Part shown: positions 2,632 to 51,446 of the stretch, piece by piece
How the letters are laid out: each line of letters opens with the position of its first letter
Position numbering within the stretch: position 1 is the stretch's first letter
Assembly: GCA_944388545.1 (NCBI GenBank)
Contig: CALXJE010000040.1
Span: forward strand, 13,938-77,937
Length of the DNA stretch: 64,000 nucleotides
Direction: 5' to 3'
Origin: an uncultured Clostridia bacterium
Lineage (GTDB): Bacteria; Bacillota; Clostridia; TANB77; CAG-465
Program-made: the position numbers and the translations under genes
Notes under the pieces: generated by a model
Databases searched by the model: none
Seen by the model: only the letters and a program-made list of their open reading frames with translations
Told to the model about the DNA's origin: nothing

Positions 2632-4431
2632 TTAGTTTATATTTGTAGCATCTGTTATCTCTTTACTAAACATACTAATTAAAGTATCTATATCCATAGT
2701 TCCTTTATCTTCACCTGTTCTTGATTTAACAGATAGTTCATTGTTCTGAACTTCCTTATCCCCTACAACTAACATATATGGAATCTTTTGAAGTCTTGCT
2801 TCTCTAATTTTATATCCTATTTTTTCACTTCTATCATCAACTTCTACTCTAAATCCCAAACTATTTAATTTATTCATAACTTCATACGCATAATCTGCAT
2901 GAGCATCAGAAATTGTAAGTATTTTAGCTTGAACTGGTGCAATCCATAAAGGAAATGCTCCTGCATATTTCTCAATTAATAATGCTAATGTTCTTTCATA
3001 ACAACCAATTGATGTTCTATGTATAATTACAGGTGTTTTCTTTTCTCCATCTGAATCTACATATGTCATATCAAATTTTTTGGCAAGTTCAAAGTCTACT
3101 TGAATAGTAATTAAAGTATCTTCTTTACCCCAAACATTTTTACATTGTATGTCAAGTTTAGGACCATAAAATGCTGCTTCTCCTTCTGCTTCAACATAAT
3201 TTATATTTAAATGATCCAATATACCTTTAAGAGCTGCTTGTGAAACTTCCCAATCTTTTTCATCACCTATATACTTTTCTTTATTGTTTGGATCCCATTT
3301 AGAAAATCTAAAAGATACATCTTCATATAACCCTAATACTTTAAGCATATATGTTGCTAAATCTATGCATCCTTTAACTTCTTCTTCTAGTTGGTCTGGT
3401 CTTACAACTAAATGACCTTCTGATATAGTAAACTGTCTTAATCTAATTAATCCATGCATTTCTCCAGATTCTTCATTTCTAAATAGAGTTGAAGTTTCAT
3501 TATATTTAAATGGAAGTTCTCTATAACTTCTTTGTTTAAATTTATATGACATAAATTGGAAAGGACATGTCATAGGTCTTAAAGCAAATACATCTTGATT
3601 TTCTTCATTTTCAGGGTCACCTAGTATAAACATGCTATCTCTATAATGATACCAATGTCCTGATATTTTATATAAATCAGATTTTGCCATAAAAGGTGTT
3701 TTTGTAAGAAGATATCCTCTTTTTTGTTCTTCGTCTTCTACAAATCTTTGAAGTAGTTGTACTATTCTTGCTCCTTTTGGCATAAGTATAGGAAGACCTT
3801 GACCTATGTAATCAACTGTTGTAAATAATTCTAATTCTCTTCCTAATTTATTATGATCTCTTTTTAGTGCTTCTTCCTGTGCATCAAGATATTCTTGTAA
3901 ATCTTTTTCTGTCTCAAAACAAGTTCCATATATTCTAGTTAACATTTTATTTTTTTCTGAACCTTTCCAATATGCTCCAGTAACAGATAAAAGCTTTACT
4001 ACTCCTATATCTTTTGCTCTTAACACATGCGGTCCTACACACATATCAAAGAAGTTATCATTTTCAAAAAAACTTATTTCGGTATCATCTCCTAAGTCAT
4101 TAATCATTTCTAATTTATATGGCTCATCTTTCATTTTCTCTATAGCTTCTTTTTTTGAAAGAACATAACTTCTTACTTCTTTATTTTGAGCTATTATGTT
4201 TTTCATTATATTCTCTATTTTTTTCAAATCTTCTTGTTTTATACTTATATTATCAAAATCATAATAAAAACCATTATCTATTGCAGGTCCTATAGCAAGT
4301 TTTGCTTCAGGATATAATTTTTTTATAGCTTCAGCTAAAATATGTGATGCGCTATGTCTTGCAACATTTATGTTTTCATTATAATCTACTTCTTCTACAT
4401 TACCATGCTTGTCTATAATTTTTATACTCAT
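2632..4431 (-). CDS. thrS: Threonine--tRNA ligase (short N-terminus)
   Basis: Motifs HSASHILAEA, RDHNKLGRELELF, class II core and C-terminal anticodon-binding region. 599 aa, with only about 25 residues preceding the HxxxH editing-domain motif. Confidence 0.85.
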   Translation of the reverse strand: MSIKIIDKHGNVEEVDYNENINVARHSASHILAEAIKKLYPEAKLAIGPAIDNGFYYDFDNISIKQEDLKKIENIMKNIIAQNKEVRSYVLSKKEAIEKMKDEPYKLEMINDLGDDTEISFFENDNFFDMCVGPHVLRAKDIGVVKLLSVTGAYWKGSEKNKMLTRIYGTCFETEKDLQEYLDAQEEALKRDHNKLGRELELFTTVDYIGQGLPILMPKGARIVQLLQRFVEDEEQKRGYLLTKTPFMAKSDLYKISGHWYHYRDSMFILGDPENEENQDVFALRPMTCPFQFMSYKFKQRSYRELPFKYNETSTLFRNEESGEMHGLIRLRQFTISEGHLVVRPDQLEEEVKGCIDLATYMLKVLGLYEDVSFRFSKWDPNNKEKYIGDEKDWEVSQAALKGILDHLNINYVEAEGEAAFYGPKLDIQCKNVWGKEDTLITIQVDFELAKKFDMTYVDSDGEKKTPVIIHRTSIGCYERTLALLIEKYAGAFPLWIAPVQAKILTISDAHADYAYEVMNKLNSLGFRVEVDDRSEKIGYKIREARLQKIPYMLVVGDKEVQNNELSVKSRTGEDKGTMDIDTLISMFSKEITDATNIN

Positions 4432-4445
4432 TTTATCCTCCTTTA

Positions 4446-5327
4446 TTATATTTTAAATTCTAAACCTATTACTTCATAATATTTATTCTTTTTAAATTCA
4501 AGTATAGAATATTTCATAGATAGTTCTCTTGCCTCTTGAATAACTAATTCATAATTATCATCTGCGTTTAAATCACATGCAAATTTAATAGAATAAACAG
4601 GCCAGTTTATAGAACTTTCGGTATTCTTTACGTAAGAATATTTAATTATTTTACTTTTATTTCCTTGAACATATACAACCACACTATATACTCCAAATTT
4701 ATTTTTTCCAGAAGATGTAGCAGATATTATTCTTGTTTTTTGGTCTGTTCCTAAATACCCCTCATAAACCTCATTTACTTTAACAGTATTATTTAATAAT
4801 CTATATTTGCCTAACGCTTTCTTAATATATTTTTCATCTTCTTTAGATGGTTCTAATTTAGCAAGTTCTCTAATCATTGCATTATTTTCCGATTTAGCAA
4901 TTGCTATATATTCACTATCAGAAACATCCTTTAAAGGTATAGCATAGGTTATTCCTCTTTCTTGATCTTGACTTACAGAATATATTTCAAAAGTTCCCAT
5001 TTTACCAGAGACATTATACATATCTATTTCGGTACCTTTAGTTATATTTGCCTTGCCATACATATTATCTTTGCTAAGCCATTTTCCTTTATCAGACACT
5101 CCTCCTACTACAACGTTATTTATTATTATAGGAGAAACAGAGGAAACTTCTTCACTTTTAACTTTAGATGATGATTTATCTATATATTCTACAGTTATAT
5201 AATTTTGTGTATACACATATATTAAAAATATCGCAGATACTAAAAGTATTACTATTAATAATATAATTAATGGTATCAGCTTTTTATTATTTTTCTTTTT
5301 ATTTACCTTTTTCATATACCTTGCCAC
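4446..5327 (-). CDS. Hypothetical membrane-anchored protein (single N-terminal TM, extracytoplasmic domain)
   Basis: ORF with K-rich N-terminus plus hydrophobic helix LIPLIILLIVILLVSAIFLIYVY. No recognisable catalytic motif. Packed between thrS and queH with short gaps. Confidence 0.5.
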   Translation of the reverse strand: MARYMKKVNKKKNNKKLIPLIILLIVILLVSAIFLIYVYTQNYITVEYIDKSSSKVKSEEVSSVSPIIINNVVVGGVSDKGKWLSKDNMYGKANITKGTEIDMYNVSGKMGTFEIYSVSQDQERGITYAIPLKDVSDSEYIAIAKSENNAMIRELAKLEPSKEDEKYIKKALGKYRLLNNTVKVNEVYEGYLGTDQKTRIISATSSGKNKFGVYSVVVYVQGNKSKIIKYSYVKNTESSINWPVYSIKFACDLNADDNYELVIQEARELSMKYSILEFKKNKYYEVIGLEFKI

Positions 5328-5878
5328 CTTCCTTCATCTATAGAATATATACAGCCACAATATTTTTGTCTATACAACCCTAGCTCTCTTGCTTTATTTT
5401 GTCCTTCTCTAAATAATGGTCTATAGTCTCTATACATGAATTCAACATTATATTTATTTGCTAGTTTGCTACATACTTTCTTTATTAAATCATGTTTTTG
5501 ATATGGACTTATTAAAAGTGTAGTAGTTACATGGGTATACCCATTTTCTTTTGCATATTCAAATACTTTTTCAAGTCTTGAAGTATAACAATATTCACAC
5601 CTTAATTTAAATTCTGTTTTATCTATATTAACTACATCATATATAAATTTATTCATATCATACTCATCTAACACAATAGGTTTTTTGCCCATTTTAGATA
5701 TATATGATATATATGTATCTTTTCTTTTTTCATATTCTACTTTAGGATGAATGTTAGTATTATACCATATAGTATCAAAACTATCTATATTTATTTCATC
5801 CATATTATTTATTGTATCATCATATACTGCCACCATACATGGCGCACAACATGCATGAATAAGTAATTTATTCTTCAT
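5312..5878 (-). CDS. queH: Epoxyqueuosine reductase QueH (DUF208)
   Basis: N-terminal [10 protein letters not shown] and C-terminal CEYCYTSR...YCGCIYS cysteine motifs typical of QueH. Confidence 0.75.
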
Positions 5879-6875
5879 ATTTTACCCCCATGTGATAATA
5901 AGCTAATTTTGTTGCAACCCTACCCCTAGGGGTTCGATTAATAAATCCAATTTGCATAAGATATGGCTCATAAACATCCTCTATTGTATCTTTATCTTCA
6001 CCAATTGCAGCCGCCATAGCTTCAAGTCCTACAGGTCTTCCTCCAAATTTATCAATCATTGTCATTAAAATTTTTCTATCTATATCATCTAACCCATATT
6101 CATCAATCTCTAATCTATTTAATGCATCGTGCGCTATTTCATAGTCTATACTATTACTTGATTTATTTGTTGCAAAGTCTCTTACTCTTTTAAGAAGCCT
6201 ATTTGCAATTCTAGGAGTGCCTCTACTTCTGCTTCCGATTTCTAACGCTGCTTCATGCGTTATATCTATATTTAATATTCCTGCACTTCTTTCTATAATA
6301 GTTGCAAGTTCTTTTTCATCATACATACTTAATCTATGTATAATACCAAATCTATCACGAAGTGGCCCTGATAATGAACCTGCTTTTGTTGTTGCTCCTA
6401 CAAGTGTAAATTTAGGAAGATCAATTCTAATTGATCTTGCAGAAGGGCCTTTTCCAATCATTATATCAAGGTTAAAATCCTCTAATGCTGGATATAACAC
6501 TTCTTCTACACTTTTTTTAAGTCTATGTATTTCGTCAATAAATAACAAATCATTTTCTTCTAAATTTGTAAGTATTGCAGCCAAATCTCCTGGTTTTTCT
6601 ATCGCAGGTCCTGATGTTATTTTTATATTAACTCCCATTTCTGATGCTATTATACTTGCAAGAGTCGTTTTACCAAGTCCTGGTGGTCCATAGAGCAGAA
6701 CATGATCTAGCGGTTCTTTTCTAGTAAGAGCTGCATCAATATATATTTTCATATTTTCTTTAACCTTAGTTTGTCCAATATATTCCGAAAAACTTCTAGG
6801 TCTAAGATTTATTTCTACTTCTGGTACATCTATCTCCTCATCATATTCAGGAGATATTACTCTATCTTCAATCAT
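5868..6875 (-). CDS. ruvB: Holliday junction branch migration ATPase RuvB
   Basis: [12 protein letters not shown]...[14 protein letters not shown] Walker A, sensor and arginine-finger regions, winged-helix C-terminus. Confidence 0.9.
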
Positions 6876-13339: not shown

Positions 13340-14794
13340 TTACATATGATCAAATATTGCTTTATCCCATGCACTTTTATTATATTTTATGTCATCTCTA
13401 TCAAATCTAGCTCCAAGGTTATATGCAGATAAAATAACATTTGAAATATCTTCATTTCCGTTTTTAAGCAATATATTTGTAACATATTTATTAATATTTG
13501 CTAATTTCCATATTATAACTGGATCACATTTTTTCTCTTTAATATATCTTAACTTAGTTTCCAGTTTATTTATACTATTTACATTATATGATTCTTTATT
13601 TTTTGGTATATAATAATCAATATTAATTATTATACTTAATTTATCTTTTGCTTTGCTTTGAGAATATATATTTACTATTTCTTCTGCAATATCAAATATA
13701 TTATCTATATCTTCATAAGTTTCATTAGGCAAACCTATATTAAAAATAAGTTTTAAGCTACTTCTATTATTTTTAAAAATACATATAATTTTTTCTAATA
13801 AATCTTCTTTTAACATTCCTAGTTTTATTTTATTATTTAATTTATTACTACATGTAATTACATTAAAATTAAGTATTGATTTTTCCATACACTCAAGAAT
13901 AACTCTTAACGTTTCTATGTCAAATTTACTAAAATCTAAGTTTTTAGTAAGTATCCTTACATCTTCAATATTCATCTTTATTTTATATACAAGTTCACAA
14001 AATTTATAGTTTTCTATTTTGTCTTGATTTATAAAGGAAACTTTAGTAACTCCCATATTTTTTATGCTATCTTTTATATATTTAATTGTTTTATCGATAT
14101 CTTTTACTTCCTCTAAATCCACTACAATACTAAATTCATCTATCTTAATCGATGGAATAATATAATTTTTATCATATTTAATTTTAACATCTTCATATCC
14201 TTGAATATTTTTTTCTACATTTAATAATATATCCTTATTAAAATTAGACTCTTCATAGCTTTTCAAATACCTTAGTATTTTTTTCATATTAGATTTTTCA
14301 TTTTCCGATTCTAATATTATATCTGCAAATTTTTCTATAGGTTTAATATTTATATTCTTTAATGGAAAAATTAACACTTTAGGCGCAATTTCAGTTCTAT
14401 CTTCCTTATTAACAGCTATTTTTGATAATTCTAATATATTTAAAAAATTGGTATAATCTAATTCATTATCAATAACAAATATTAATAAATCACTATCTTT
14501 TATAGGTTTAAAATCTTCGAGTGAATATAGCAATTCATTTTTATCCCTTAGAAGTTTTTCAAAATCCATGTCAGGTGCAAAGCATCTTTTACAATAAATT
14601 CCTTCTATATCATTTATATTATTGTATAATAAATTTATTATATAATTTGACATGGCTTTTTCATAAACATTTGGATAACATAAAATAATATTACTTTTTA
14701 CTTTACTACCACTTTTTATTATTTGATTTACTTCTCCGCCTACATACCTTGCAGGTTTGTTTATGTTTTTTAACTCTCTGCTCTCTAAATTCAC
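13340..14794 (-). CDS. TIGR03960-like (radical-SAM-family N-terminal domain) protein lacking the CxxxCxxC cluster motif
   Basis: N-terminus KPARYVGGEVN...ILCYPNVYEKAMSNYIINLLYNNIN...YCKRCFAPDMDFE matches the distinctive N-terminal block of the TIGR03960 family. No CxxxCxxC anywhere. 484 aa versus about 600 typical. Confidence 0.45.
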   Translation of the reverse strand: MNLESRELKNINKPARYVGGEVNQIIKSGSKVKSNIILCYPNVYEKAMSNYIINLLYNNINDIEGIYCKRCFAPDMDFEKLLRDKNELLYSLEDFKPIKDSDLLIFVIDNELDYTNFLNILELSKIAVNKEDRTEIAPKVLIFPLKNINIKPIEKFADIILESENEKSNMKKILRYLKSYEESNFNKDILLNVEKNIQGYEDVKIKYDKNYIIPSIKIDEFSIVVDLEEVKDIDKTIKYIKDSIKNMGVTKVSFINQDKIENYKFCELVYKIKMNIEDVRILTKNLDFSKFDIETLRVILECMEKSILNFNVITCSNKLNNKIKLGMLKEDLLEKIICIFKNNRSSLKLIFNIGLPNETYEDIDNIFDIAEEIVNIYSQSKAKDKLSIIINIDYYIPKNKESYNVNSINKLETKLRYIKEKKCDPVIIWKLANINKYVTNILLKNGNEDISNVILSAYNLGARFDRDDIKYNKSAWDKAIFDHM

Positions 14795-23703: not shown

Positions 23704-23730
23704 TTAGCACTCTTTTTGTTCGACTGCTAA
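23704..23730 (-). promoter_or_regulatory. CIRCE operator (HrcA binding site) upstream of hrcA
   Basis: TTAGCACTC-N9-GACTGCTAA versus consensus TTAGCACTC-N9-GAGTGCTAA (1 mismatch), 7 nt upstream of the hrcA start. Confidence 0.85.
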
Positions 23731-23825
23731 CACATGTATATATAATAATACCAATTGCATATAAAGTCAATACAATTGGTATATTTTTTTGTGAATTTTT
23801 TGTAACCTCTTAATAAGTACCCGTT

Positions 23826-25067
23826 TTACATTATATAAAGTGTTAATCGAAAACCGAAGTTAACGTCGCAGTTAGTCGGAATATTACCGTAACGAGAGCA
23901 AGCTCGATTTTCTGGTCCAACAAGATAGGAATAGAAATCTCCTCGGCTAATACGATAACTACTACCGTTAGCTTCCATAGTCCATTCATATACATTCCCT
24001 GCTAAGTCATATATATTCTTTGCTTTCCAATTTTCATGTGCTCCTGTTTTTGCCGGATTATTTGGACTTACTGATGTTCTATCTGGATTATTATAATAAT
24101 TTCCCCATGATGTACTATCATTTACATTATGCTCGTTATCTGCTATAAACCTTAATACTGCATCCCACTGCACACTATATATTAATGTTGATTTTACTGA
24201 AGTGCTTGACTTATATAAATTTCTTGATAGTTCTACTGCCCCTTTTCCTTGATTTTTACTACTATATGTTACATCTCCTTCTGCTGATGTCATACTTGGT
24301 CCCCAACCCACATAATTATATACATATGCATCTTGTTTTACTACCATGTTTGTCGTTCCATTAGCTACATTAGTTCTTTCTGTCTCACTTCCTGCTTCAT
24401 ATCTTCCTATATAAAAGCCTCCATACTTTTCTACACTTTCTTTCATTTTTTTATATTCTGCATATTCTCCTGTTAAATCATTTGTTTCTGTTATTGTTGT
24501 ATTATATGAATATGGCTCTGTATAATATGAAGATAATCCTGATGTTGGCGCATTATTTGACCATGCTGTCCTTGTAAACTCAGATGTATCTACTGGCACC
24601 CATACAAATTGATTTCTTGTTGTCTTTGCGTCCGTGTCTGTTGATACTTTTTCCTTTCCTTCATATATTACTAGTCCCCCAGCTATTGTATTTTCTCCTT
24701 CTATATCTGATACCACAAATCCTTCTGGCACTGTTACTATTGATATTTTACCTGCATCTGATATATATATTAGCCCTAAATCTTCATCACTAAAACCTTG
24801 ATCTTTTAATTTGTCTTTTATATATTCTTCTGCACTTCTTGTTTCATTATCCATTTCTGTTGCTAGTACCCATTCTCCGTATGCTATATTTGCTGCTTCT
24901 TTTAGTGTTGCCATGTCACTTGCCTTTTTTGCTTCTTTTGCTCTATCTATTACTCCGCTATTATTTAATGTTAATATTATTGCTCCTGCTAATATTATCA
25001 TGATTATTATTGTTATTATTAACACTATCAATGATATACCTATCCTTTGTTTTTTTCTTGTTTTCAT
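23826..25067 (-). CDS. Membrane-anchored FGE-sulfatase (SUMF1/formylglycine-generating-enzyme-like) domain protein, paralog 1
   Basis: N-terminus MKTRKKQRIGISLIVLIITIIIMIILAGAIILTLNNSG (signal anchor, pilin-like). C-terminus NIYDLAGNVYEWTME...ISRGDFYSY...RACSRYGN......NFGFRLTLYI matches the FGE-sulfatase signature. Confidence 0.65.
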   Translation of the reverse strand: MKTRKKQRIGISLIVLIITIIIMIILAGAIILTLNNSGVIDRAKEAKKASDMATLKEAANIAYGEWVLATEMDNETRSAEEYIKDKLKDQGFSDEDLGLIYISDAGKISIVTVPEGFVVSDIEGENTIAGGLVIYEGKEKVSTDTDAKTTRNQFVWVPVDTSEFTRTAWSNNAPTSGLSSYYTEPYSYNTTITETNDLTGEYAEYKKMKESVEKYGGFYIGRYEAGSETERTNVANGTTNMVVKQDAYVYNYVGWGPSMTSAEGDVTYSSKNQGKGAVELSRNLYKSSTSVKSTLIYSVQWDAVLRFIADNEHNVNDSTSWGNYYNNPDRTSVSPNNPAKTGAHENWKAKNIYDLAGNVYEWTMEANGSSYRISRGDFYSYLVGPENRACSRYGNIPTNCDVNFGFRLTLYIM

Positions 25068-25184: not shown

Positions 25185-25559
25185 TTAATTAAATAGCCTT
25201 CCATATTTTTCGGTTGAATATTCAACTATATAATCAATTCTAGAGATTAAATATTCTATATCAGACATATTTACCTCATTCATATCTAGTGTATTATACT
25301 CAGAATTAACGCCAAGCATAGCCATAAAAAGTTCTTTATCTTTGTCAAGATATTCTTTGATTATGTTTGTTATACTTGTATCTTCTAATTTCACTTTAAA
25401 TTGTTTAATTAATATATTTATATTCACAAATTCAAGTAATGCTGCAGCTTTATAATAGGCTTCTTTATATAGTTTATTATCAATACATTTCTGAATCTTG
25501 CTTAACATTTGTTTTAATTTTTCATATTTTGATATATTACAAAACAACTTATCATTCAT
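25185..25559 (-). CDS. Hypothetical protein (124 aa), translationally coupled to the upstream 359-aa ORF
   Basis: 4-nt ATGA overlap with the upstream gene. No recognisable domain. Confidence 0.5.
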   Translation of the reverse strand: MNDKLFCNISKYEKLKQMLSKIQKCIDNKLYKEAYYKAAALLEFVNINILIKQFKVKLEDTSITNIIKEYLDKDKELFMAMLGVNSEYNTLDMNEVNMSDIEYLISRIDYIVEYSTEKYGRLFN

Positions 25560-26635
25560 CTTCCATCACCCCTTGTATCGTATGCTCCTTTTACCTTCAA
25601 ATAATGAGCATATCTCGGATTTGTTTTTTCAATGTCATTAATTTTCTCTAGCTGCTTTTCTTCTGTCATACCTCTAAGAGATTTTAAAAATTTTTCTGCA
25701 TCTTCTGATACATTGCTACTTAGCATGATGTTGTTTTTCTCAAAAAGAACTTGATCATATTCTTTATTACTTAGCAGATCAAATATTGCTCTACGATTAA
25801 TATTTATCTCTTCATCTAAATTCTTAGATAATACACTCTCATCTACATACTTATTTTTACTTAATCTATTTTGGGTATTAACTGATGCCTGCGCTTCTAA
25901 TTTTGGATCCATTAGGTGAACCGCAAACTGTCCGTAATATGGTAAATCCATTACAAAAGCTTTTTGTGATTTTCCATTTTTATTAATACTATCTTTTATA
26001 CCATAATTGATATCAGGTCTATCTTTAAGTTTTACTAACATCTTTTGAAGAGAGTATTCTTTTAAGTAAAAAGCTGTACTTTCTGCTTCTACAAGTTCTC
26101 CAAATCCATCTGTTTTAAATTGATTAACATCAATTCCTAGATATTCACATTCTCTACTTAGGGTATAATTAATATAACCTTGCTTGTCTTTTTTTGAATA
26201 ATGAAATTGTCTTCTAATGCCTTTTAAAATGTTAGCCTCTGAAGATTTATCTACACTATCACTTGCATATTCTCTTATTTTTTTTCTCATTATATCTGTT
26301 ATACTATGTGCTATTCTATTTGAAATCGTCACACATAGTGCAAGCTCTACTATATCCTCACCAGAAGCTTCAGATAATATATCTTCTATAGTAGTATCTT
26401 TATCTATAAAAGTTTGCATTTCTGTTGGTTTTTCTTCCTCTTTATCGTTATATTTATTTAACCAATTTGGTTCTAGCTCATTGTACGCAACTAATATATT
26501 TTTTAACATCTCATAATTATCTGCCAAACAGTCCTCTATCAATGAAAAATTTAAATTTTTAACTCTATTTTTTCTAGAATTTGCCCTTTCTAATTCTAGT
26601 TCTTTATCTATTTTATTGAAATTAACGCCTTTCAA
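25556..26635 (-). CDS. Hypothetical protein (359 aa), unknown function
   Basis: TTG start preceded by GAGGTG RBS. Soluble, charged. No Walker, HExxH or other catalytic signature recognised. Confidence 0.5.
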   Translation of the reverse strand: MKGVNFNKIDKELELERANSRKNRVKNLNFSLIEDCLADNYEMLKNILVAYNELEPNWLNKYNDKEEEKPTEMQTFIDKDTTIEDILSEASGEDIVELALCVTISNRIAHSITDIMRKKIREYASDSVDKSSEANILKGIRRQFHYSKKDKQGYINYTLSRECEYLGIDVNQFKTDGFGELVEAESTAFYLKEYSLQKMLVKLKDRPDINYGIKDSINKNGKSQKAFVMDLPYYGQFAVHLMDPKLEAQASVNTQNRLSKNKYVDESVLSKNLDEEININRRAIFDLLSNKEYDQVLFEKNNIMLSSNVSEDAEKFLKSLRGMTEEKQLEKINDIEKTNPRYAHYLKVKGAYDTRGDGR

Positions 26636-26702: not shown

Positions 26703-26735
26703 AAAAAAATCACGTTAATACGTGACTTCTTTCTT
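26703..26735 (-). terminator. Weak intrinsic terminator after the 75-aa ORF
   Basis: TCACGT-TAAT-ACGTGA stem with a U-run on the minus strand. Confidence 0.35.
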
Positions 26736-26961
26736 AAATTTTTATTAATCTTCCAATTTTCTTATGTATTTCTTCTAGAGATTGATAATAATATTCATCT
26801 TTATCTTCTCTATCAAGGCTTGATAACTCAAAATCGATTTCAAGTAGTTTTGCACATTTTGCTAAATATTCTTTGTACTCTGGATTAAAACTATCAGTTA
26901 CATTAGGACTTTTTTGAGTAAAATCTTTAATTTTATTTCTTAATTCTTCAACCGTTACCAT
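26734..26961 (-). CDS. Small hypothetical protein (75 aa)
   Basis: ORF MVTVEELRNKIKDFTQKSPNV...; acidic. No known motif. Confidence 0.4.
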   Translation of the reverse strand: MVTVEELRNKIKDFTQKSPNVTDSFNPEYKEYLAKCAKLLEIDFELSSLDREDKDEYYYQSLEEIHKKIGRLIKI

Positions 26962-37312: not shown

Positions 37313-38626
37313 TTATATTAAATACAAAGCTATTCTAAAACCAGTACTCGAACTTGCTTCATTGCTAAATGAACCATATCTAGTTGATGCTCCTCCATCT
37401 GCTCCTCCTTTATTTAAATTATAAAAACCTCCTCTTGTTGCTATAATACTTGAACTCATTTCCATAGTTATTTCATATATATTTCCAGCTATATCATATA
37501 TGTTTTTAGCTTTCCAATATTCACTACTTCCTGTTTTTTGCAATGTACCTGCCCCATCTACTTGTTTTTCACTACTAACACTACTATTATAATCTTTATA
37601 ATTCCCCCAGTCACTTGAATCAGTAACATTCACATCTGTAGATAAAAATCTTAAAACGGCATCCCATTGTACTCCGTAACATAATGTTGATACTATAGCT
37701 TTATTACCACTATACATATTTCTTGATAATTCTATTGCGCCCTTCCCTTGATTTGTTGTTTCATCCCAGTAATCTATTACATCTCCTGTTGTTGATATTC
37801 TTGTTGGTCCCCAGCCTACATAGTTATATACATATGCTCCTTTTTTTACTACTACATCTGTTGTACCATTTGATTTATCTGTTCTTTCAACATTAGTACC
37901 TGTTTCATATCTACCTATATAAAAGCCTTTATATTTTTGTACACTAGTTTTCATTGCAGCATACTCAGCATATTCTCCTGTTAAATCATTATCTTCTGAT
38001 AATGTTACAGTAGCTCCATCCCTACAGCCACTACCAAACTCATAATCTGTACACACATTTGTTGCAGGCTCAATATAAGCAGAATTTAAGCCAGATACTG
38101 GTTTATTATCAGACCACTCAGTTCTTACAAAATCAGAAAAATTTTCAACAGGGACCCATACAAATTCATTACCATTTTTATCTTGAATTACTATACCTGT
38201 ATCTTTAGTGCCATCTATGTAAACAAAATCTTCTGGAATTATTATACTATATGTCATATTTTTTTCCTTATATATTGTATTTACAGTCCCCTCATCTGTT
38301 ACAATATATGCTCCGTTTTCGTTTCCAGTTTTTATTCCCGCCTCTTCTAACTTTTTATTTGCATAGTCAGAAAATTTTCCGGTATTATTAGTTTCTTGTT
38401 TTTGCTCTTCCTCAGACATTAAATTCCATTCTAGCTGAACAACTGCAACTAATTCTTTTACACTTGCTATATCACTTTTATTTTTTGCTTCTTCTGCTCT
38501 TCCTATTATTCCGCTATTATTTAATGTTAGTATTATTGCTCCTGCCAATATTATCATGACTATTATTGTAATTACTAATACTATTAGCGATATTCCTCTT
38601 TTTTGTTTCCTTAGTTTTTCTTCCAT
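37313..38626 (-). CDS. Membrane-anchored FGE-sulfatase-domain protein, paralog 2
   Basis: N-terminus KRGISLIVLVITIIVMIILAGAIILTLNNSGIIGRAEEAK is near-identical to paralog 1. C-terminus GNIYEITME...TRGGFYN...GFRIALYLI. Confidence 0.65.
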   Translation of the reverse strand: MEEKLRKQKRGISLIVLVITIIVMIILAGAIILTLNNSGIIGRAEEAKNKSDIASVKELVAVVQLEWNLMSEEEQKQETNNTGKFSDYANKKLEEAGIKTGNENGAYIVTDEGTVNTIYKEKNMTYSIIIPEDFVYIDGTKDTGIVIQDKNGNEFVWVPVENFSDFVRTEWSDNKPVSGLNSAYIEPATNVCTDYEFGSGCRDGATVTLSEDNDLTGEYAEYAAMKTSVQKYKGFYIGRYETGTNVERTDKSNGTTDVVVKKGAYVYNYVGWGPTRISTTGDVIDYWDETTNQGKGAIELSRNMYSGNKAIVSTLCYGVQWDAVLRFLSTDVNVTDSSDWGNYKDYNSSVSSEKQVDGAGTLQKTGSSEYWKAKNIYDIAGNIYEITMEMSSSIIATRGGFYNLNKGGADGGASTRYGSFSNEASSSTGFRIALYLI

Positions 38627-47904: not shown

Positions 47905-49512
47905 TTATTTATTAACAAATTTTGTTTTAAGTACATATCCAAATCCTAATAATGCAACTACCCCAAGAACTATTACCATATACATTGTAAAGTCAGATGT
48001 ATTTGGATTTTCTGTATTATTTACTGATGATATATTTTCTGCTGATAATATATATGTAGATGCATGATCTAATTCAATTGTTGCTACATTATTTTCATCA
48101 ACTACAATATCATCTGCAACTAATTCAATTTTATCATTATTTGGATTATAGTAATATAGATATAATTTATCTCCTACTTTAAATTCACTTCCTGTTTTAA
48201 ATGATATTTTTGTATCTTTAGGAAGTACTCCTTCATACTCTAAATCAACAAATAACAAATCTGATTTAACGCTATTTAATAAATTACTGTTAAATGGTTG
48301 CTCTTTTACAACATCAACATTTAAGCTTAAATCTTTACTAGCGCTGTCTGTTATATTTTTTGTATTAAAACTTATTGTTACGGTTTCTGTATTAATAACA
48401 ATTTCTCTTGCTGGTCCGTTTTTTAATTCGTTTAATACTTCTGCACTTATTACATCATTTTCTTTAACCTCAATATTAATTATAGTAGAACCATTTGATA
48501 TTTCTTCTTTTATTTGATTATCTGCAGTATCTAAAGTGTTTTTTGCATCTAAATAATATTGTGTTTGTAAATGATCTCCTTTATCAACTTCAATATTTTT
48601 CTTAAAGCCAGCATACTCTACTACAACATTATCCATCTTAGGATCTATCCATAATGTTGGTTTTAAGTATTCTTCTGTGCTATTTACTAAAGTCGCTCCA
48701 CTTAAGTTTATAACAGGATTGCTTCCTGAAAGTTCAATTCCTCCAAAGCCATTGTTTGAAACATCTATTTTACCTTTTAATGTAGCATTTCCTCCATTAA
48801 CTAATAGACCAGCATTAGCACCTGATAGAGTTATATCATTAATAGTTACATTTGATCTATATACCTGTAATACATAGTGTCCTCCCCATGTAGTTTTATC
48901 TGCTAAATTCATAGTTAATTTGTGAGCATTACCATTTATAGTAACATCTCTAGTAATATTTATTTTTGCAGATGTAGTAAAATCTTTTACTATATTTATT
49001 GTTTTAACGTTGTTATCATTTAACGCTGCATTAAATTCTGACTCAGTTGATACATCTCTTACACTTTTATCTATAACTTTAATATTTAGAGTGTTTTCAG
49101 CAATTGTTTTGCCATCACTTACTCCAACTACTTTATAAGTAGCAGAATATTCTCCTTCCTTTTTAAATGTTACTCTAAATTTAGCAGATGTATTTTGAAG
49201 TTTAAATCCTTCTGAACTACCAAAGTTTCCATCGGCCGGTAATTCATACCAATTTCCATCTTTTACTTCATAGTATTCAATTTTTTCTATAGCACTTGGA
49301 TCACTAAGTCCTCCTGTTCCACGTACCATTACATCACCATATCCTTCAGGAACTTCAGTAGATATAGTAAATTCTTGTGACTCACCAACATAAAAATCTC
49401 CACCTGTATTCATGCTTATAGTAGGTTTTTCTACTGCATTAATACTAACAAATGGCATTACTGCTATTGCCACAATTAAAAAACTTAGCATAAACTTTAA
49501 ACTTTTTTTCAT
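47905..49512 (-). CDS. Cell-wall-anchored surface protein with NPNTS sorting signal (candidate sortase B substrate)
   Basis: Signal peptide MKKSLKFMLSFLIVAIAVMPFVSINA. C-terminus NPNTS + 21 hydrophobic residues + KTKFVNK. Middle region Gly/Asn-rich, beta-helix-like. Confidence 0.65.
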   Translation of the reverse strand: MKKSLKFMLSFLIVAIAVMPFVSINAVEKPTISMNTGGDFYVGESQEFTISTEVPEGYGDVMVRGTGGLSDPSAIEKIEYYEVKDGNWYELPADGNFGSSEGFKLQNTSAKFRVTFKKEGEYSATYKVVGVSDGKTIAENTLNIKVIDKSVRDVSTESEFNAALNDNNVKTINIVKDFTTSAKINITRDVTINGNAHKLTMNLADKTTWGGHYVLQVYRSNVTINDITLSGANAGLLVNGGNATLKGKIDVSNNGFGGIELSGSNPVINLSGATLVNSTEEYLKPTLWIDPKMDNVVVEYAGFKKNIEVDKGDHLQTQYYLDAKNTLDTADNQIKEEISNGSTIINIEVKENDVISAEVLNELKNGPAREIVINTETVTISFNTKNITDSASKDLSLNVDVVKEQPFNSNLLNSVKSDLLFVDLEYEGVLPKDTKISFKTGSEFKVGDKLYLYYYNPNNDKIELVADDIVVDENNVATIELDHASTYILSAENISSVNNTENPNTSDFTMYMVIVLGVVALLGFGYVLKTKFVNK

Positions 49513-49754
49513 AATATTCCTCCTATTTTCTAAATGAACACTAAATTCATATGTATATTATATACCATTTAATATCTTTGTAAACAATTTAATAATTAAA
49601 TATAACTATATACATATTTTGTAATAATAATGTAATATTTTAGATTTATTTTTTAATATTATTTGCTTTTTTATCTAATAATATTTACAATTTAATTTGT
49701 TATTTACAAAAAAATAGTTTATAATTATATTGATTATTTCAGGAGGTATATAAA

Positions 49755-50633
49755 TTGATACAAGAAACAGATCAGATGCAACCTACTCGAAGAAGAAAAG
49801 GAAATGTTAAATTAAACAAATCTAAAAAAAAGAAAAAATTAGCAGTTTTTATACTCATAATATCTCTTATTGCTGCAATTTTCTCTATTCTACTTGCTAT
49901 AAAATGGATATATGATAACAATAAATCACAAGAAATTTCCGAAGAAATAAATGAAATCACTGATGTTACTGAGGTTACTGATGAATCTAATGTCGAACTA
50001 ATAAATCCACCTGATAATAAATCTAATGATTATTGGGATTTTATAAAAGTTCCTTTAATTAATGTAGACTTTTCAGAATTAATAAAAAGAAATAAAGATA
50101 CAGTCGGATGGATAAATGTAAATAATACAAATATAAACTACCCTGTTGTTCAAACAACGAATAATGAAGATTATCTAGATACAGCCTTTGATGGTTCTAA
50201 AAATCAAGCTGGATGGATATTTGCAGATTATAGAAACGATATGAAAAACTTAGACAAAAACACTGTTATATATGGGCATAGTAGATTAAACAAAACCATG
50301 TTTGGTGATTTATTTAATGTACTAAATAAAAGCTGGTATGAGAATAAATATAATAGAATTATTAGACTTTCTACTCCTACTGAAAATACCATGTGGCAAG
50401 TCTTCTCAATTTACACAATTAATCCTGAAACATATTATATTACCACTCATTTTAGTAACGATAATAGCTACACCAAGTTTTTAAATACTATTAAGGATAG
50501 AAGTAACTATAATTTTAATGTATCTTTAAGTAGTAAAGACAAAATAATAACTCTATCTACATGTAGTAATGCAGCAGGTACGGGCAGAATTGTATTGCAT
50601 GCAAAATTGATAAAAAGAGAGGCTAGATTTTAA
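49755..50633 (+). CDS. srtB: Class B sortase
   Basis: N-terminal TM. Catalytic His (IYGHSRLNKTMF), TLSTC cysteine motif, conserved Arg. RBS AGGAGG plus TTG/ATG start. Confidence 0.8.
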   Translation: MIQETDQMQPTRRRKGNVKLNKSKKKKKLAVFILIISLIAAIFSILLAIKWIYDNNKSQEISEEINEITDVTEVTDESNVELINPPDNKSNDYWDFIKVPLINVDFSELIKRNKDTVGWINVNNTNINYPVVQTTNNEDYLDTAFDGSKNQAGWIFADYRNDMKNLDKNTVIYGHSRLNKTMFGDLFNVLNKSWYENKYNRIIRLSTPTENTMWQVFSIYTINPETYYITTHFSNDNSYTKFLNTIKDRSNYNFNVSLSSKDKIITLSTCSNAAGTGRIVLHAKLIKREARF

Positions 50634-50685
50634 TCTAATCTCATAAATATTATTTTTAATCTAGTTAATTTTTTAATATGACTAC

Positions 50686-51357
50686 TTATAATAAAAAAGA
50701 GGGTGTCCTAAAATAGGAACCCGAAAGCCAGAAAATCCAGCTCGATAAGAGTTGGATTTTTTGGTTTGAAAATTTGATTATATTTTTTAGTAGCAAGATG
50801 GCTTTTACCATCGCTTCTTCTTTTAAATTTTCTATATCTTTCATTAACTCGTGTACTTGCTCTTGAAGTTTTACTCTATATTTTTCTACTGCCTTTTTCC
50901 ATACAAATGTGTACTTATTTGCATTTGCCTCAATTTTCGTTCCATCTACAAAGTATTCTTCTGTGCTTATATATCCCTTCTTTTCTAATACTACAAGCAA
51001 TTCTACAAATACATCTTCCATTATGATTTTCATTTTGTCTTTTCTAAATGAATTAATTACATTTCTTGTTGGCTTATTTCCTCCTGCTAACCATATGAAT
51101 TTTATGTCACATTGTACTGCTTCTGCTATTTGTCTTGATGAGTACTTTTTTCTAATATACCCATACATTAATATTTTTAGCATCATTTTTGGAGAGTATG
51201 AATTACTTCCCAAAGGTGAATATGTTTCTATCAGTTTATCAATATTCATATTATCAATTAAATCATTTATCACAAATACTATATCATCTTTATCTATCAA
51301 TGTTTTCCATTCCATTGGTATCATTAATTGGTTTTGTTCATAATATTTAAATCCCAT
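50686..51357 (-). pseudogene. Truncated transposase (N-terminal half only)
   Basis: MGFKYYEQNQLM...MLKILMYGYIRKKYSSRQIAEAVQCDIKFIWLAGGNKPTRNVINSFRK typical of IS1182/IS5 N-terminal domain. No DDE catalytic half. 224 aa versus over 450 expected. Confidence 0.7.
50694..50760. repeat. Left terminal inverted repeat (67 bp)
   Basis: AAAAAGAGGGTGTCCTAAAATAGGAACCCGAAAGCCAGAAAATCCAGCTCGATAAGAGTTGGATTTT. Confidence 0.9.
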
Positions 51358-51446
51358 TTTTATACCTCCAAAGTCGCTATTTTTCACACCTGAATTATAT
51401 CATTAAAGTATTGATTTGTCAGTATTTAGGACGATTTTTAGCAAAG

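Follow-up and report, generated by a model that had tools for sequence, protein, structure and literature searches.

Two paralogous proteins with pilin-like leaders and FGE-type lectin domains belong to a retroelement-linked family of uncultured gut Clostridia

Introduction

TvpA, Mtd and TaqVP belong to the variable proteins that diversity-generating retroelements (DGRs) target, and the variable regions (VRs) of C-type lectins of the FGE type (CLec) form the largest class of DGR targets, in which targets remote from the retroelement are also known. TvpA of Treponema denticola (CLec1 class; category b of Wu et al. 2018) is a non-catalytic protein with a C-terminal FGE-subclass lectin fold, and in its class the VR occupies a stretch between RGG and GFR motifs, within the final ~45 residues, and one DGR serves an adjacent target as well as several remote ones. 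Mtd of Bordetella phage BPP-1 and TaqVP carry a C-terminal VR on a C-type-lectin scaffold that binds ligand, and Mtd sits at the tip of the phage tail fibre. Here we compare with these systems two genes, which we call copy 1 and copy 2, that lie on a 64,000-nucleotide stretch of the genome of an uncultured Clostridia bacterium (positions 13,938 to 77,937 of contig CALXJE010000040.1, assembly GCA_944388545.1), referred to below as the window.

The family to which the two genes belong resembles the TvpA class in its lectin fold, in the position of its VR and in the service of adjacent and remote targets by one DGR, and it resembles Mtd and TaqVP in placing a C-terminal VR on a ligand-binding lectin scaffold. 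It departs from them in other respects. TvpA is a spirochaete lipoprotein, whereas the window family begins with a pilin-like leader and helix; the cassette associated with the family carries an MSL gene (Architecture D); and the window genes have no cassette or template repeat (TR) within reach, copy 2 lacking even an imprint in its VR. Whereas Mtd is a phage protein, tblastn searches of phage genomes found no homolog of the target protein of our family. The use of remote targets points to cellular DGRs.

For the N-terminal part of the proteins, the closest described systems are pilins. GspK is a minor pseudopilin that lacks the glutamate at position +5 (Glu5), carries a large extra domain and is proposed to occupy the filament tip. 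It shares the first two of these properties with the window family, but is encoded by a single-copy gene in an operon for a type II secretion system, whereas the leader found in the window heads ~20,000 protein clusters, with many copies per genome. The modular pilins PilB and PilC of Streptococcus sanguinis, like the window proteins, join a short pilin-type N-terminal module to a bulky module (vWA, lectin or M26), but have the canonical IPR012902 motif, are processed by PilD and come from genes that lie in a pilus locus (Raynaud et al. 2021, PMC8179133). The window family instead has Val or Ala at +5, does not satisfy the N_methyl model and shows no detectable pilin head, and no pilus machinery was found nearby.

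Our reading, to which we assign a probability of roughly three in four, is that both genes encode surface-displayed, non-enzymatic ligand-binding proteins of an FGE-type C-lectin DGR family in uncultured gut Clostridia, with copy 1 retaining a faded imprint of diversification and copy 2 being fixed in sequence. Proteins of this kind are already known: the window genes are ordinary members of the FGE/C-lectin class of DGR variable proteins, in which remote targets occur. What we provisionally regard as new is that proteins of this class are here joined to a pilin-like leader without Glu5, together with the size of the superfamily that the leader defines; an incomplete search of the literature found nothing relevant on the leader motif or on DGRs and pilins together.

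Results

Two full-length paralogs with an FGE-type C-type-lectin fold

The two genes and their C-terminal domains are placed in the window as follows.

23826..25067, minus strand: copy 1 gene, 413 amino acids, with a pilin-like leader, a short linker module and an FGE-type C-lectin domain (from the open reading frame (ORF), paralogy, homologs and an AlphaFold model)
37313..38626, minus strand: copy 2 gene, 437 amino acids, with the same architecture as copy 1; a static singleton (from the ORF, paralogy and a homolog search)
23829..24620, minus strand: FGE-type C-type-lectin domain of copy 1, approximately residues 150–413, non-catalytic (from the profile, Pfam matches of relatives and Foldseek; no conserved Cys or His)
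37316..38179, minus strand: FGE-type C-lectin domain of copy 2 (aligned throughout with copy 1 and the family)

The genes are separated by 12.2 kb and encode paralogs that align over their full length (46% identity, E 3e-119). The initial annotation, made from the DNA alone, had placed both ORFs correctly and had recognized their paralogy and pilin-like N-termini, and the C-terminal motifs that it quoted (GNV/IYEW/I, RGD/RGG and GFR) are indeed present in both proteins. More than 6,865 homologs were matched when the family was searched.

The same annotation had proposed an FGE-sulfatase-type fold for the C-terminal halves. Taken alone, the window proteins fail to reach the gathering score of the corresponding Pfam model, PF03781 (12.1 bits for copy 1 versus a cut-off of 23.3, and no match for copy 2), but 26 of 37 aligned relatives match it. 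A profile of the family searched against the Protein Data Bank (PDB) found pFGE (3e-7) and TvpA (3e-5), as well as PorK/GldK and FGE. The AlphaFold model of copy 1, which was built on the alignment, was of high confidence (pLDDT 87.9, pTM 0.82), and its Foldseek neighbours were led by TvpA (1.7e-5) and included FGEs, PvdO, CarF, CalU17, Mtd, TaqVP, EgtB and PorK. On the strength of the Pfam matches of relatives, the profile matches and the structural neighbours of a confident model, we conclude that the proposed fold is real and that the C-terminal half is an FGE-subclass C-type-lectin domain.

The family includes cis and trans targets of a DGR

In the family alignment, the most variable part of the proteins is the segment between RGG and GFR, comprising the last ~45 residues. 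This segment, which in many members is the DGR variable region, is where divergence is greatest, rather than in the middle regions to which it had initially been ascribed.

We surveyed 79 related loci from metagenome-assembled genomes (MAGs) of gut Clostridia. At three of these loci (L033, L025 and L039), a copy of the last 120 nucleotides of the gene lies ~2.2 kb downstream of it, with 24–27 mismatches, of which 21–24 fall at adenines of the downstream copy. Between the gene and the repeat of L033 are ORFs that match MutS_I (6e-8), bAvd (1.3e-14) and RVT_1 (1.5e-19), and the cassette is a canonical DGR with the layout that Wu et al. 2018 (PMC5758913) call Architecture D, which includes MSL. 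The TR of L033 also matches family genes on other contigs of the same MAG, L012 and L038. With L012 it agrees at 75 of the 77 non-A positions, and A accounts for 21 of the 23 mismatches; with L038 it agrees at 72 of the 77, and A accounts for 23 of the 28. The TR of L025 likewise matches L047, and a TR/VR match is found for each of the relatives L033, L025, L039, L012, L038 and L047. Because the TR of L033 matches both the adjacent gene and genes on other contigs, the family includes bona fide cis and trans DGR targets.

The cis target L033 and the remote targets L012 and L038 share a near-identical 3′ flank of more than 70 nucleotides, which diverges from the TR immediately after the VR. This is what a homing boundary would look like, and we regard the flank as a candidate extended target-recognition element of this DGR lineage. 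The part that follows the stop codon (L033 11263–11340, and its equivalents in L012 and L038) is far better conserved than the coding body.

The six proven targets also share a compositional imprint, in that the VR has an excess of GC (dGC 0.15–0.19) and a third-position C content (C3) of 0.29–0.42. About 30 of 75 family ORFs carry this signature, and the remainder grade down to none. The associated reverse transcriptase (RT) is well conserved and has 3,106 matches, including hundreds of clusters at 76–82% identity. A very abundant DGR lineage of gut Clostridia, with more than 3,000 RT homologs, thus serves a multi-copy family that is scattered among housekeeping genes and whose members range from actively diversified to fixed.

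Several other family loci had features of their own. An orphan ORF of 154 amino acids that matches MutS_I (MSL-like) lies at L082 11419–11883, directly downstream of the family gene P0004, at a locus that lacks Avd, RT and TR. Within L081 7092–13410, from the same bin, the family gene P0003 is inserted between mutS and mutL. A link between family targets and mismatch-repair genes is possible. The C terminus of P0006, on a 30,734-nucleotide NCBI contig, is a VR in which a frameshift carries translation on through the conserved 3′ flank (…STLCSVELGLIFTRLDKIY being the +1 frame of …ACTTTATGTAGTGTAGAACTGG.TCTGATATTCACAAGACTAGATAAG…), and looks like a target inactivated by an out-of-frame event. 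At L048, the tandem family genes at 3473–4588 and 5243–6358 have VR 3′ ends that are identical at 120 of 120 positions, reflecting either a recent duplication or an assembly repeat.

Copy 1 carries a weakened, probable imprint of diversification and copy 2 carries none

The segments of the window genes that correspond to the VR and its boundary are the following.

23853..23990, minus strand: VR-equivalent segment of copy 1, residues 360–405 (from composition, homolog comparison and alignment entropy)
23800..23846, minus strand: 3′ boundary and flank of copy 1 (TTAACACTTTATATAATGTAAAACGGGTACTTATT...), a degraded relative of the invariant block described below (from flank comparison)
37340..37477, minus strand: VR-equivalent segment of copy 2, with no DGR imprint (from composition)

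In copy 1, the GC content of the VR segment is 0.42, compared with 0.32 in the rest of the gene (dGC 0.08); third-position C rises to 0.24 from 0.03, and third-position A falls to 0.17 from 0.60. This shift is intermediate, following the same pattern as in the proven targets but more weakly. Copy 1 belongs to a clade of ~17 proteins at 70–85% identity. Of these, at least three are paralogs from a single metagenome bin (BRZ_DN), in which they sit among different housekeeping genes. In homologs at 75–85% identity, ~30 of the final 53 residues are not those of copy 1, versus 1–4 per 20 residues elsewhere. The BRZ_DN paralogs have in common an invariant block of ~55 nucleotides that spans the end of the VR and the downstream flank; such a block marks the proven or likely DGR targets among the relatives, and is degraded in copy 1 and absent from copy 2. 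Judging from these sequence features, we conclude that copy 1 was probably shaped by DGR diversification, of which it would retain a partial and weakened imprint, and that it is probably a past DGR target, or possibly one that a cassette in another part of the genome still serves remotely. Copy 2, for which we found one identical sequence and then nothing closer than 51% identity, is a fixed-sequence paralog.

Several observations weigh against our reading of the two genes as members of a diversified and displayed family. The window yielded no RT, Avd, MSL or template repeat, and a TR search of it with both genes, on both strands and with or without adenine-tolerant scoring, returned nothing above the background of ~50% identity. 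Nor was an RT or TR found at the copy-1-clade loci examined (L080 to L083), and among the 120 best RT homologs none was on a contig known to carry a gene of this clade. Because the VR of a sister strain that is 99% identical is the same as that of copy 1, no diversification occurred over the interval separating the two strains. Copy 1 departs from its closest likely-active paralogs by an indel of one codon, by Arg in place of Pro at a scaffold position and by a 3′ boundary that is degraded, and its GC excess of 0.08 is half that of the proven targets. Copy 2 shows no DGR imprint at all: the GC content of its segment is 0.34 versus 0.32 (dGC 0.01), C3 is 0.02, and the segment contains Lys and Glu codons. 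With respect to the N terminus, Foldseek found no pilin-fold neighbour for the isolated N-terminal module, and surface display is something that we only infer.

It is possible, although not probable, that copy 1 is at present an active remote target of a cassette elsewhere in the genome, and that its binding face is still being rewritten in the population. Remote targets are demonstrated within the family, the discontinuity of third-position C and A in copy 1 resembles that of the proven targets, and in DGR lineages with remote targets both in-frame indels and changes away from A are tolerated (PMC5758913). Because such changes are typical of these lineages, the indel and the non-A changes of copy 1 do not prove decay. 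Moreover, the VR of the homolog P0002 is entirely different, and this homolog apparently shares an 87-kb contig with a sequence that matches copy 2 at 100% identity; P0002 differs by ~10% outside the VR as well, however, and hence is no simple DGR variant of copy 1. Continued activity is further opposed by the lack of a TR in the window and at the clade loci examined, by the unchanged VR of the sister strain and by a 3′ boundary that has degraded relative to the block of the likely-active paralogs.

A pilin-like leader that lacks Glu5

The N-terminal features of the two proteins are encoded as follows.

24960..25067, minus strand: class III-like signal of copy 1, with a basic MKTRKKQRI, Gly10 at −1, a hydrophobic tract of 22 residues (ISLIVLIITIIIMIILAGAIIL) and Val at +5 (from the leader profile, position statistics and helix 13–36)
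24852..24953, minus strand: amphipathic continuation of the alpha-1 helix of copy 1, residues 39–72, aligned to pilin alpha-1C (from the model and profile)
38513..38626, minus strand: class III-like signal and hydrophobic tract of copy 2, with …KQKRG followed by ISLIVLVITIIVMIILAGAIIL (from the ORF and leader profile)

The leader is the most conserved part of the family proteins. Counting from the conserved Gly, 33 of 40 residues are identical between the two copies, as are 26 of 28 in the hydrophobic core. At the nucleotide level the identity is 86%, and 7 of the 40 codons differ synonymously. These synonymous differences rule out recent gene conversion as the cause of the similarity and indicate that the identity of the leader is kept by selection, as had been proposed from the near-identity of the first 40 residues.

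A resemblance to prepilin signals, with Val at +5, had also been noted, and it was borne out by profile comparison. When a 68-position leader profile was searched against the PDB, the top 11 matches were all type IV pilins or pseudopilins, among them Geobacter PilA-N (1.1e-7 and 3e-6), PilE1, MshA, Thermus PilA4/PilA5 and GspG. The alignment is in register, running through the basic leader and Gly(−1) and then through 63 residues of the alpha-1 helix. Among 259 sequences, position −1 is Gly (93%) or Ala (7%), +1 is Ile or Val, +2 is Ser or Thr, +3 is Leu, +4 is Ile and +9 is Thr in 97%, whereas +5 is Val in 86% and Ala in 10% (either of the two in 247) and is never Glu; the median length of the basic leader peptide is 8 residues, and its net charge is +3. 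The architecture is that of class III signals, with a short hydrophilic leader ending in Gly or Ala and ~21 hydrophobic residues that open an alpha-1 helix of ~50 residues, and the model of copy 1 has helices at residues 13–36 and 39–72. We conclude that homology to type IV pilins extends over the first ~65 residues, which correspond to the class III signal plus the alpha-1 helix, with Val or Ala replacing Glu5.

No existing family model that we tried captures this leader. The N_methyl motif (PF07963 / IPR012902), with its Glu at +5, is not present: PF07963 gave no match for the window proteins and was touched below threshold by 12 of 28 leaders. TIGR01710 (GspG) scored 11–14 bits on the window proteins, against a cut-off of 88.85, and no other Pfam or NCBIfam model that was tried reached threshold on the leader. 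Searches built on Glu5 or on N_methyl would miss a pilin-like leader that is widespread: among 1.84 billion cluster representatives, the leader profile (A5; KKG followed by ISLIVLVITIIV...) found 36,992 at E ≤ 1e-3 and 19,857 at E ≤ 1e-10. Within the MAGs that carry the family, the leader also heads proteins of the GLUG/M26-like, Big_2, RCC1 and BspA-LRR types and other FGE proteins. It is thus a general signal and not one specific to the FGE-lectin family.

Sequence comparison of this kind leaves three fates for proteins with a pilin-type signal and helix, which may be filament subunits, peptidase-processed anchored proteins or plain signal-anchored proteins. We regard it as doubtful that they are subunits of a type IV filament, that is, modular minor pilins or tip adhesins that are processed by a prepilin peptidase and presented on a pilus or pseudopilus. 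The in-register homology of leader and alpha-1 to pilins, the class III architecture and the partial N_methyl matches would all suit such a role, as would the presence of the same leader on GLUG/M26, Big_2, LRR and RCC1 proteins, given the established existence of modular pilins onto which lectin, vWA or M26 modules are grafted (PMC8179133); a missing Glu5 would then mark a tip or initiator position, as in GspK. Against it stand the lack of Glu5 in 259 of 259 sequences, the failure to reach the N_methyl threshold and the absence of a detectable pilin head fold, the model of residues 1–148 (pLDDT 81) having a small alpha/beta region but only Foldseek matches with E > 4. The machinery, too, was not found in the DNA covered. 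The window contains no GspE/PilB ATPase, PilC or A24 peptidase, and in 1.3 Mb of family neighbourhoods motif scans for the GspE Walker A and the A24 GxGDxK yielded only false positives and no canonical major pilin with GFTLIE was seen. Beside the leader-gene clusters L064 and L053 there was likewise no pilus machinery, and Pfam searches of the neighbours found housekeeping genes only.

It is unlikely that the N terminus is simply an uncleaved Sec/YidC signal-anchor, making these type II membrane proteins whose resemblance to pilins stems from hydrophobic composition. The leader does give weak matches to unrelated transmembrane families, no pilus machinery was found nearby, and most cellular DGR targets carry generic N-terminal transmembrane segments or signal peptides (Roux et al., PMC8144416). 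Hydrophobic composition does not readily account, however, for a 63-residue in-register alignment that takes in the basic leader, Gly(−1), Ser or Thr at +2, Leu at +3, Ile at +4 and an amphipathic alpha-1C, nor for the exclusive occurrence of pilins and pseudopilins among the top 11 PDB matches, and conservation position by position across ~20,000 clusters goes far beyond what a generic anchor needs.

No conserved catalytic residues

FGE, pFGE, EgtB and PvdO share with the window family both the fold and the framework motifs (GN(V)xEW...RGG...GFR), and the initial annotation had accordingly raised the FGE copper site and ligand-modifying chemistry. In the family alignment (A1), no column has Cys or His in ≥50% of sequences, the positions of the FGE Cys pair fall in the hypervariable segment (entropy >3 bits), and copy 2 has no Cys anywhere in that region. 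Because neither Cys nor His is conserved, and the catalytic Cys pair (Cu site) and the His triad (Fe site) are accordingly absent, enzymes of the FGE/SUMF1, EgtB or OvoA type are excluded. That the copies are FGE/SUMF1-, EgtB- or PvdO-like enzymes acting on a cell-surface substrate is thus exceedingly improbable despite the common fold and motifs, the closest structure, TvpA, being itself non-catalytic (PMC5758913).

A model for display and diversification

The reading that we prefer, of a non-enzymatic lectin family linked to DGRs, suggests how the proteins might work. The basic leader and hydrophobic helix would direct insertion into the membrane with the C terminus outside, where the FGE-type lectin domain would be presented on the amphipathic helix and the small linker module. 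If TvpA and Mtd are a guide, the ligand-binding face would consist of the distal loops between the invariant R372/R375/G376, R392 and G405-F406-R407, and candidate ligands would be glycans or proteins of host or microbial surfaces, giving the proteins a presumptive role as adhesins or receptors. In genomes with an MSL-Avd-RT-TR cassette, the TR RNA would be reverse-transcribed with adenine-specific errors, and the cDNA would replace the VR of every gene with a matching 3′ boundary, whether adjacent or scattered. Paralogs that lose the boundary or the cassette would freeze and drift towards AT-rich codon usage, a process that would be complete in copy 2 and may be under way in copy 1.

A pair of FGE-like proteins that had been flagged as surface-displayed and unexplained thus becomes two members of a system of known logic, the FGE-type C-lectin family of DGR variable proteins, in which a retroelement can rewrite the binding face of a lectin scaffold. 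For the window genes themselves, the result is largely explanatory.

A broader proposal, which we consider improbable, concerns the leader. The divergent, Glu5-less prepilin-type signal (KKG followed by I-S/T-L-I-V/A-L-V-I-T-I-I-V; ~20,000 clusters) might define a dedicated route of adhesin display in uncultured gut Clostridia, with the adhesins either borne on the tip of a type IV-like filament or anchored by their helix after peptidase processing. The lectin members would then undergo hypermutation by DGRs, both in cis and in trans, with copy 1 as one remote target. The anchored option would be a bacterial counterpart of the archaeal 'bindosome'. Were the leader to mark such a pathway, DGR hypervariation would be tied to type IV filament biology in abundant uncultured bacteria of the human and animal gut, and the leader would also give a starting point for identifying the ligands of these bacteria. 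With the DGRs acting on the lectin members, the cell would possess a programmable, hypervariable set of pilus-type adhesins.

Genomic setting and minor observations

The window is part of an AT-rich Firmicute chromosome (~28% GC). Copy 1 lies upstream of hrcA-grpE-dnaK and copy 2 upstream of pnp, each as a single insertion among housekeeping genes, and in the window no ORF other than these two bears the leader. The small accessory islands in which the genes had been thought to lie proved an overstatement. There are indeed a few small ORFs of unknown function upstream of each copy, but neither locus has a compositional anomaly at the scale of the locus, and the sister strain (L080) is syntenic with the window at the copy-1 locus.

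The ORFs just upstream of copy 1 comprise two that overlap, of 124 amino acids (25185–25559) and 359 amino acids (25556–26635), and one at 26734–26961. Pfam and PADLOC found nothing credible for them. They are retained in the sister strain but do not occur beside family genes elsewhere, so the co-occurrence with adjacent genes for which the initial annotation had suggested looking is not seen, and these ORFs probably have nothing to do with copy 1.

Between copy 1 and hrcA, at 23704–23730, lies a perfect-type CIRCE operator (TTAGCACTC-N9-GACTGCTAA), the expected HrcA binding site of the hrcA-grpE-dnaK-dnaJ operon.

At 47905–51387 the window also encodes a Pectate_lyase_5 'adhesive domain' protein (47905–49512) with a signal peptide and a C-terminal transmembrane segment, adjoined by a sortase (49755–50633) and a DUF772 transposase fragment (50686–51387). 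The Pectate_lyase_5 protein and the sortase constitute a second, conventional route of surface display in the window.

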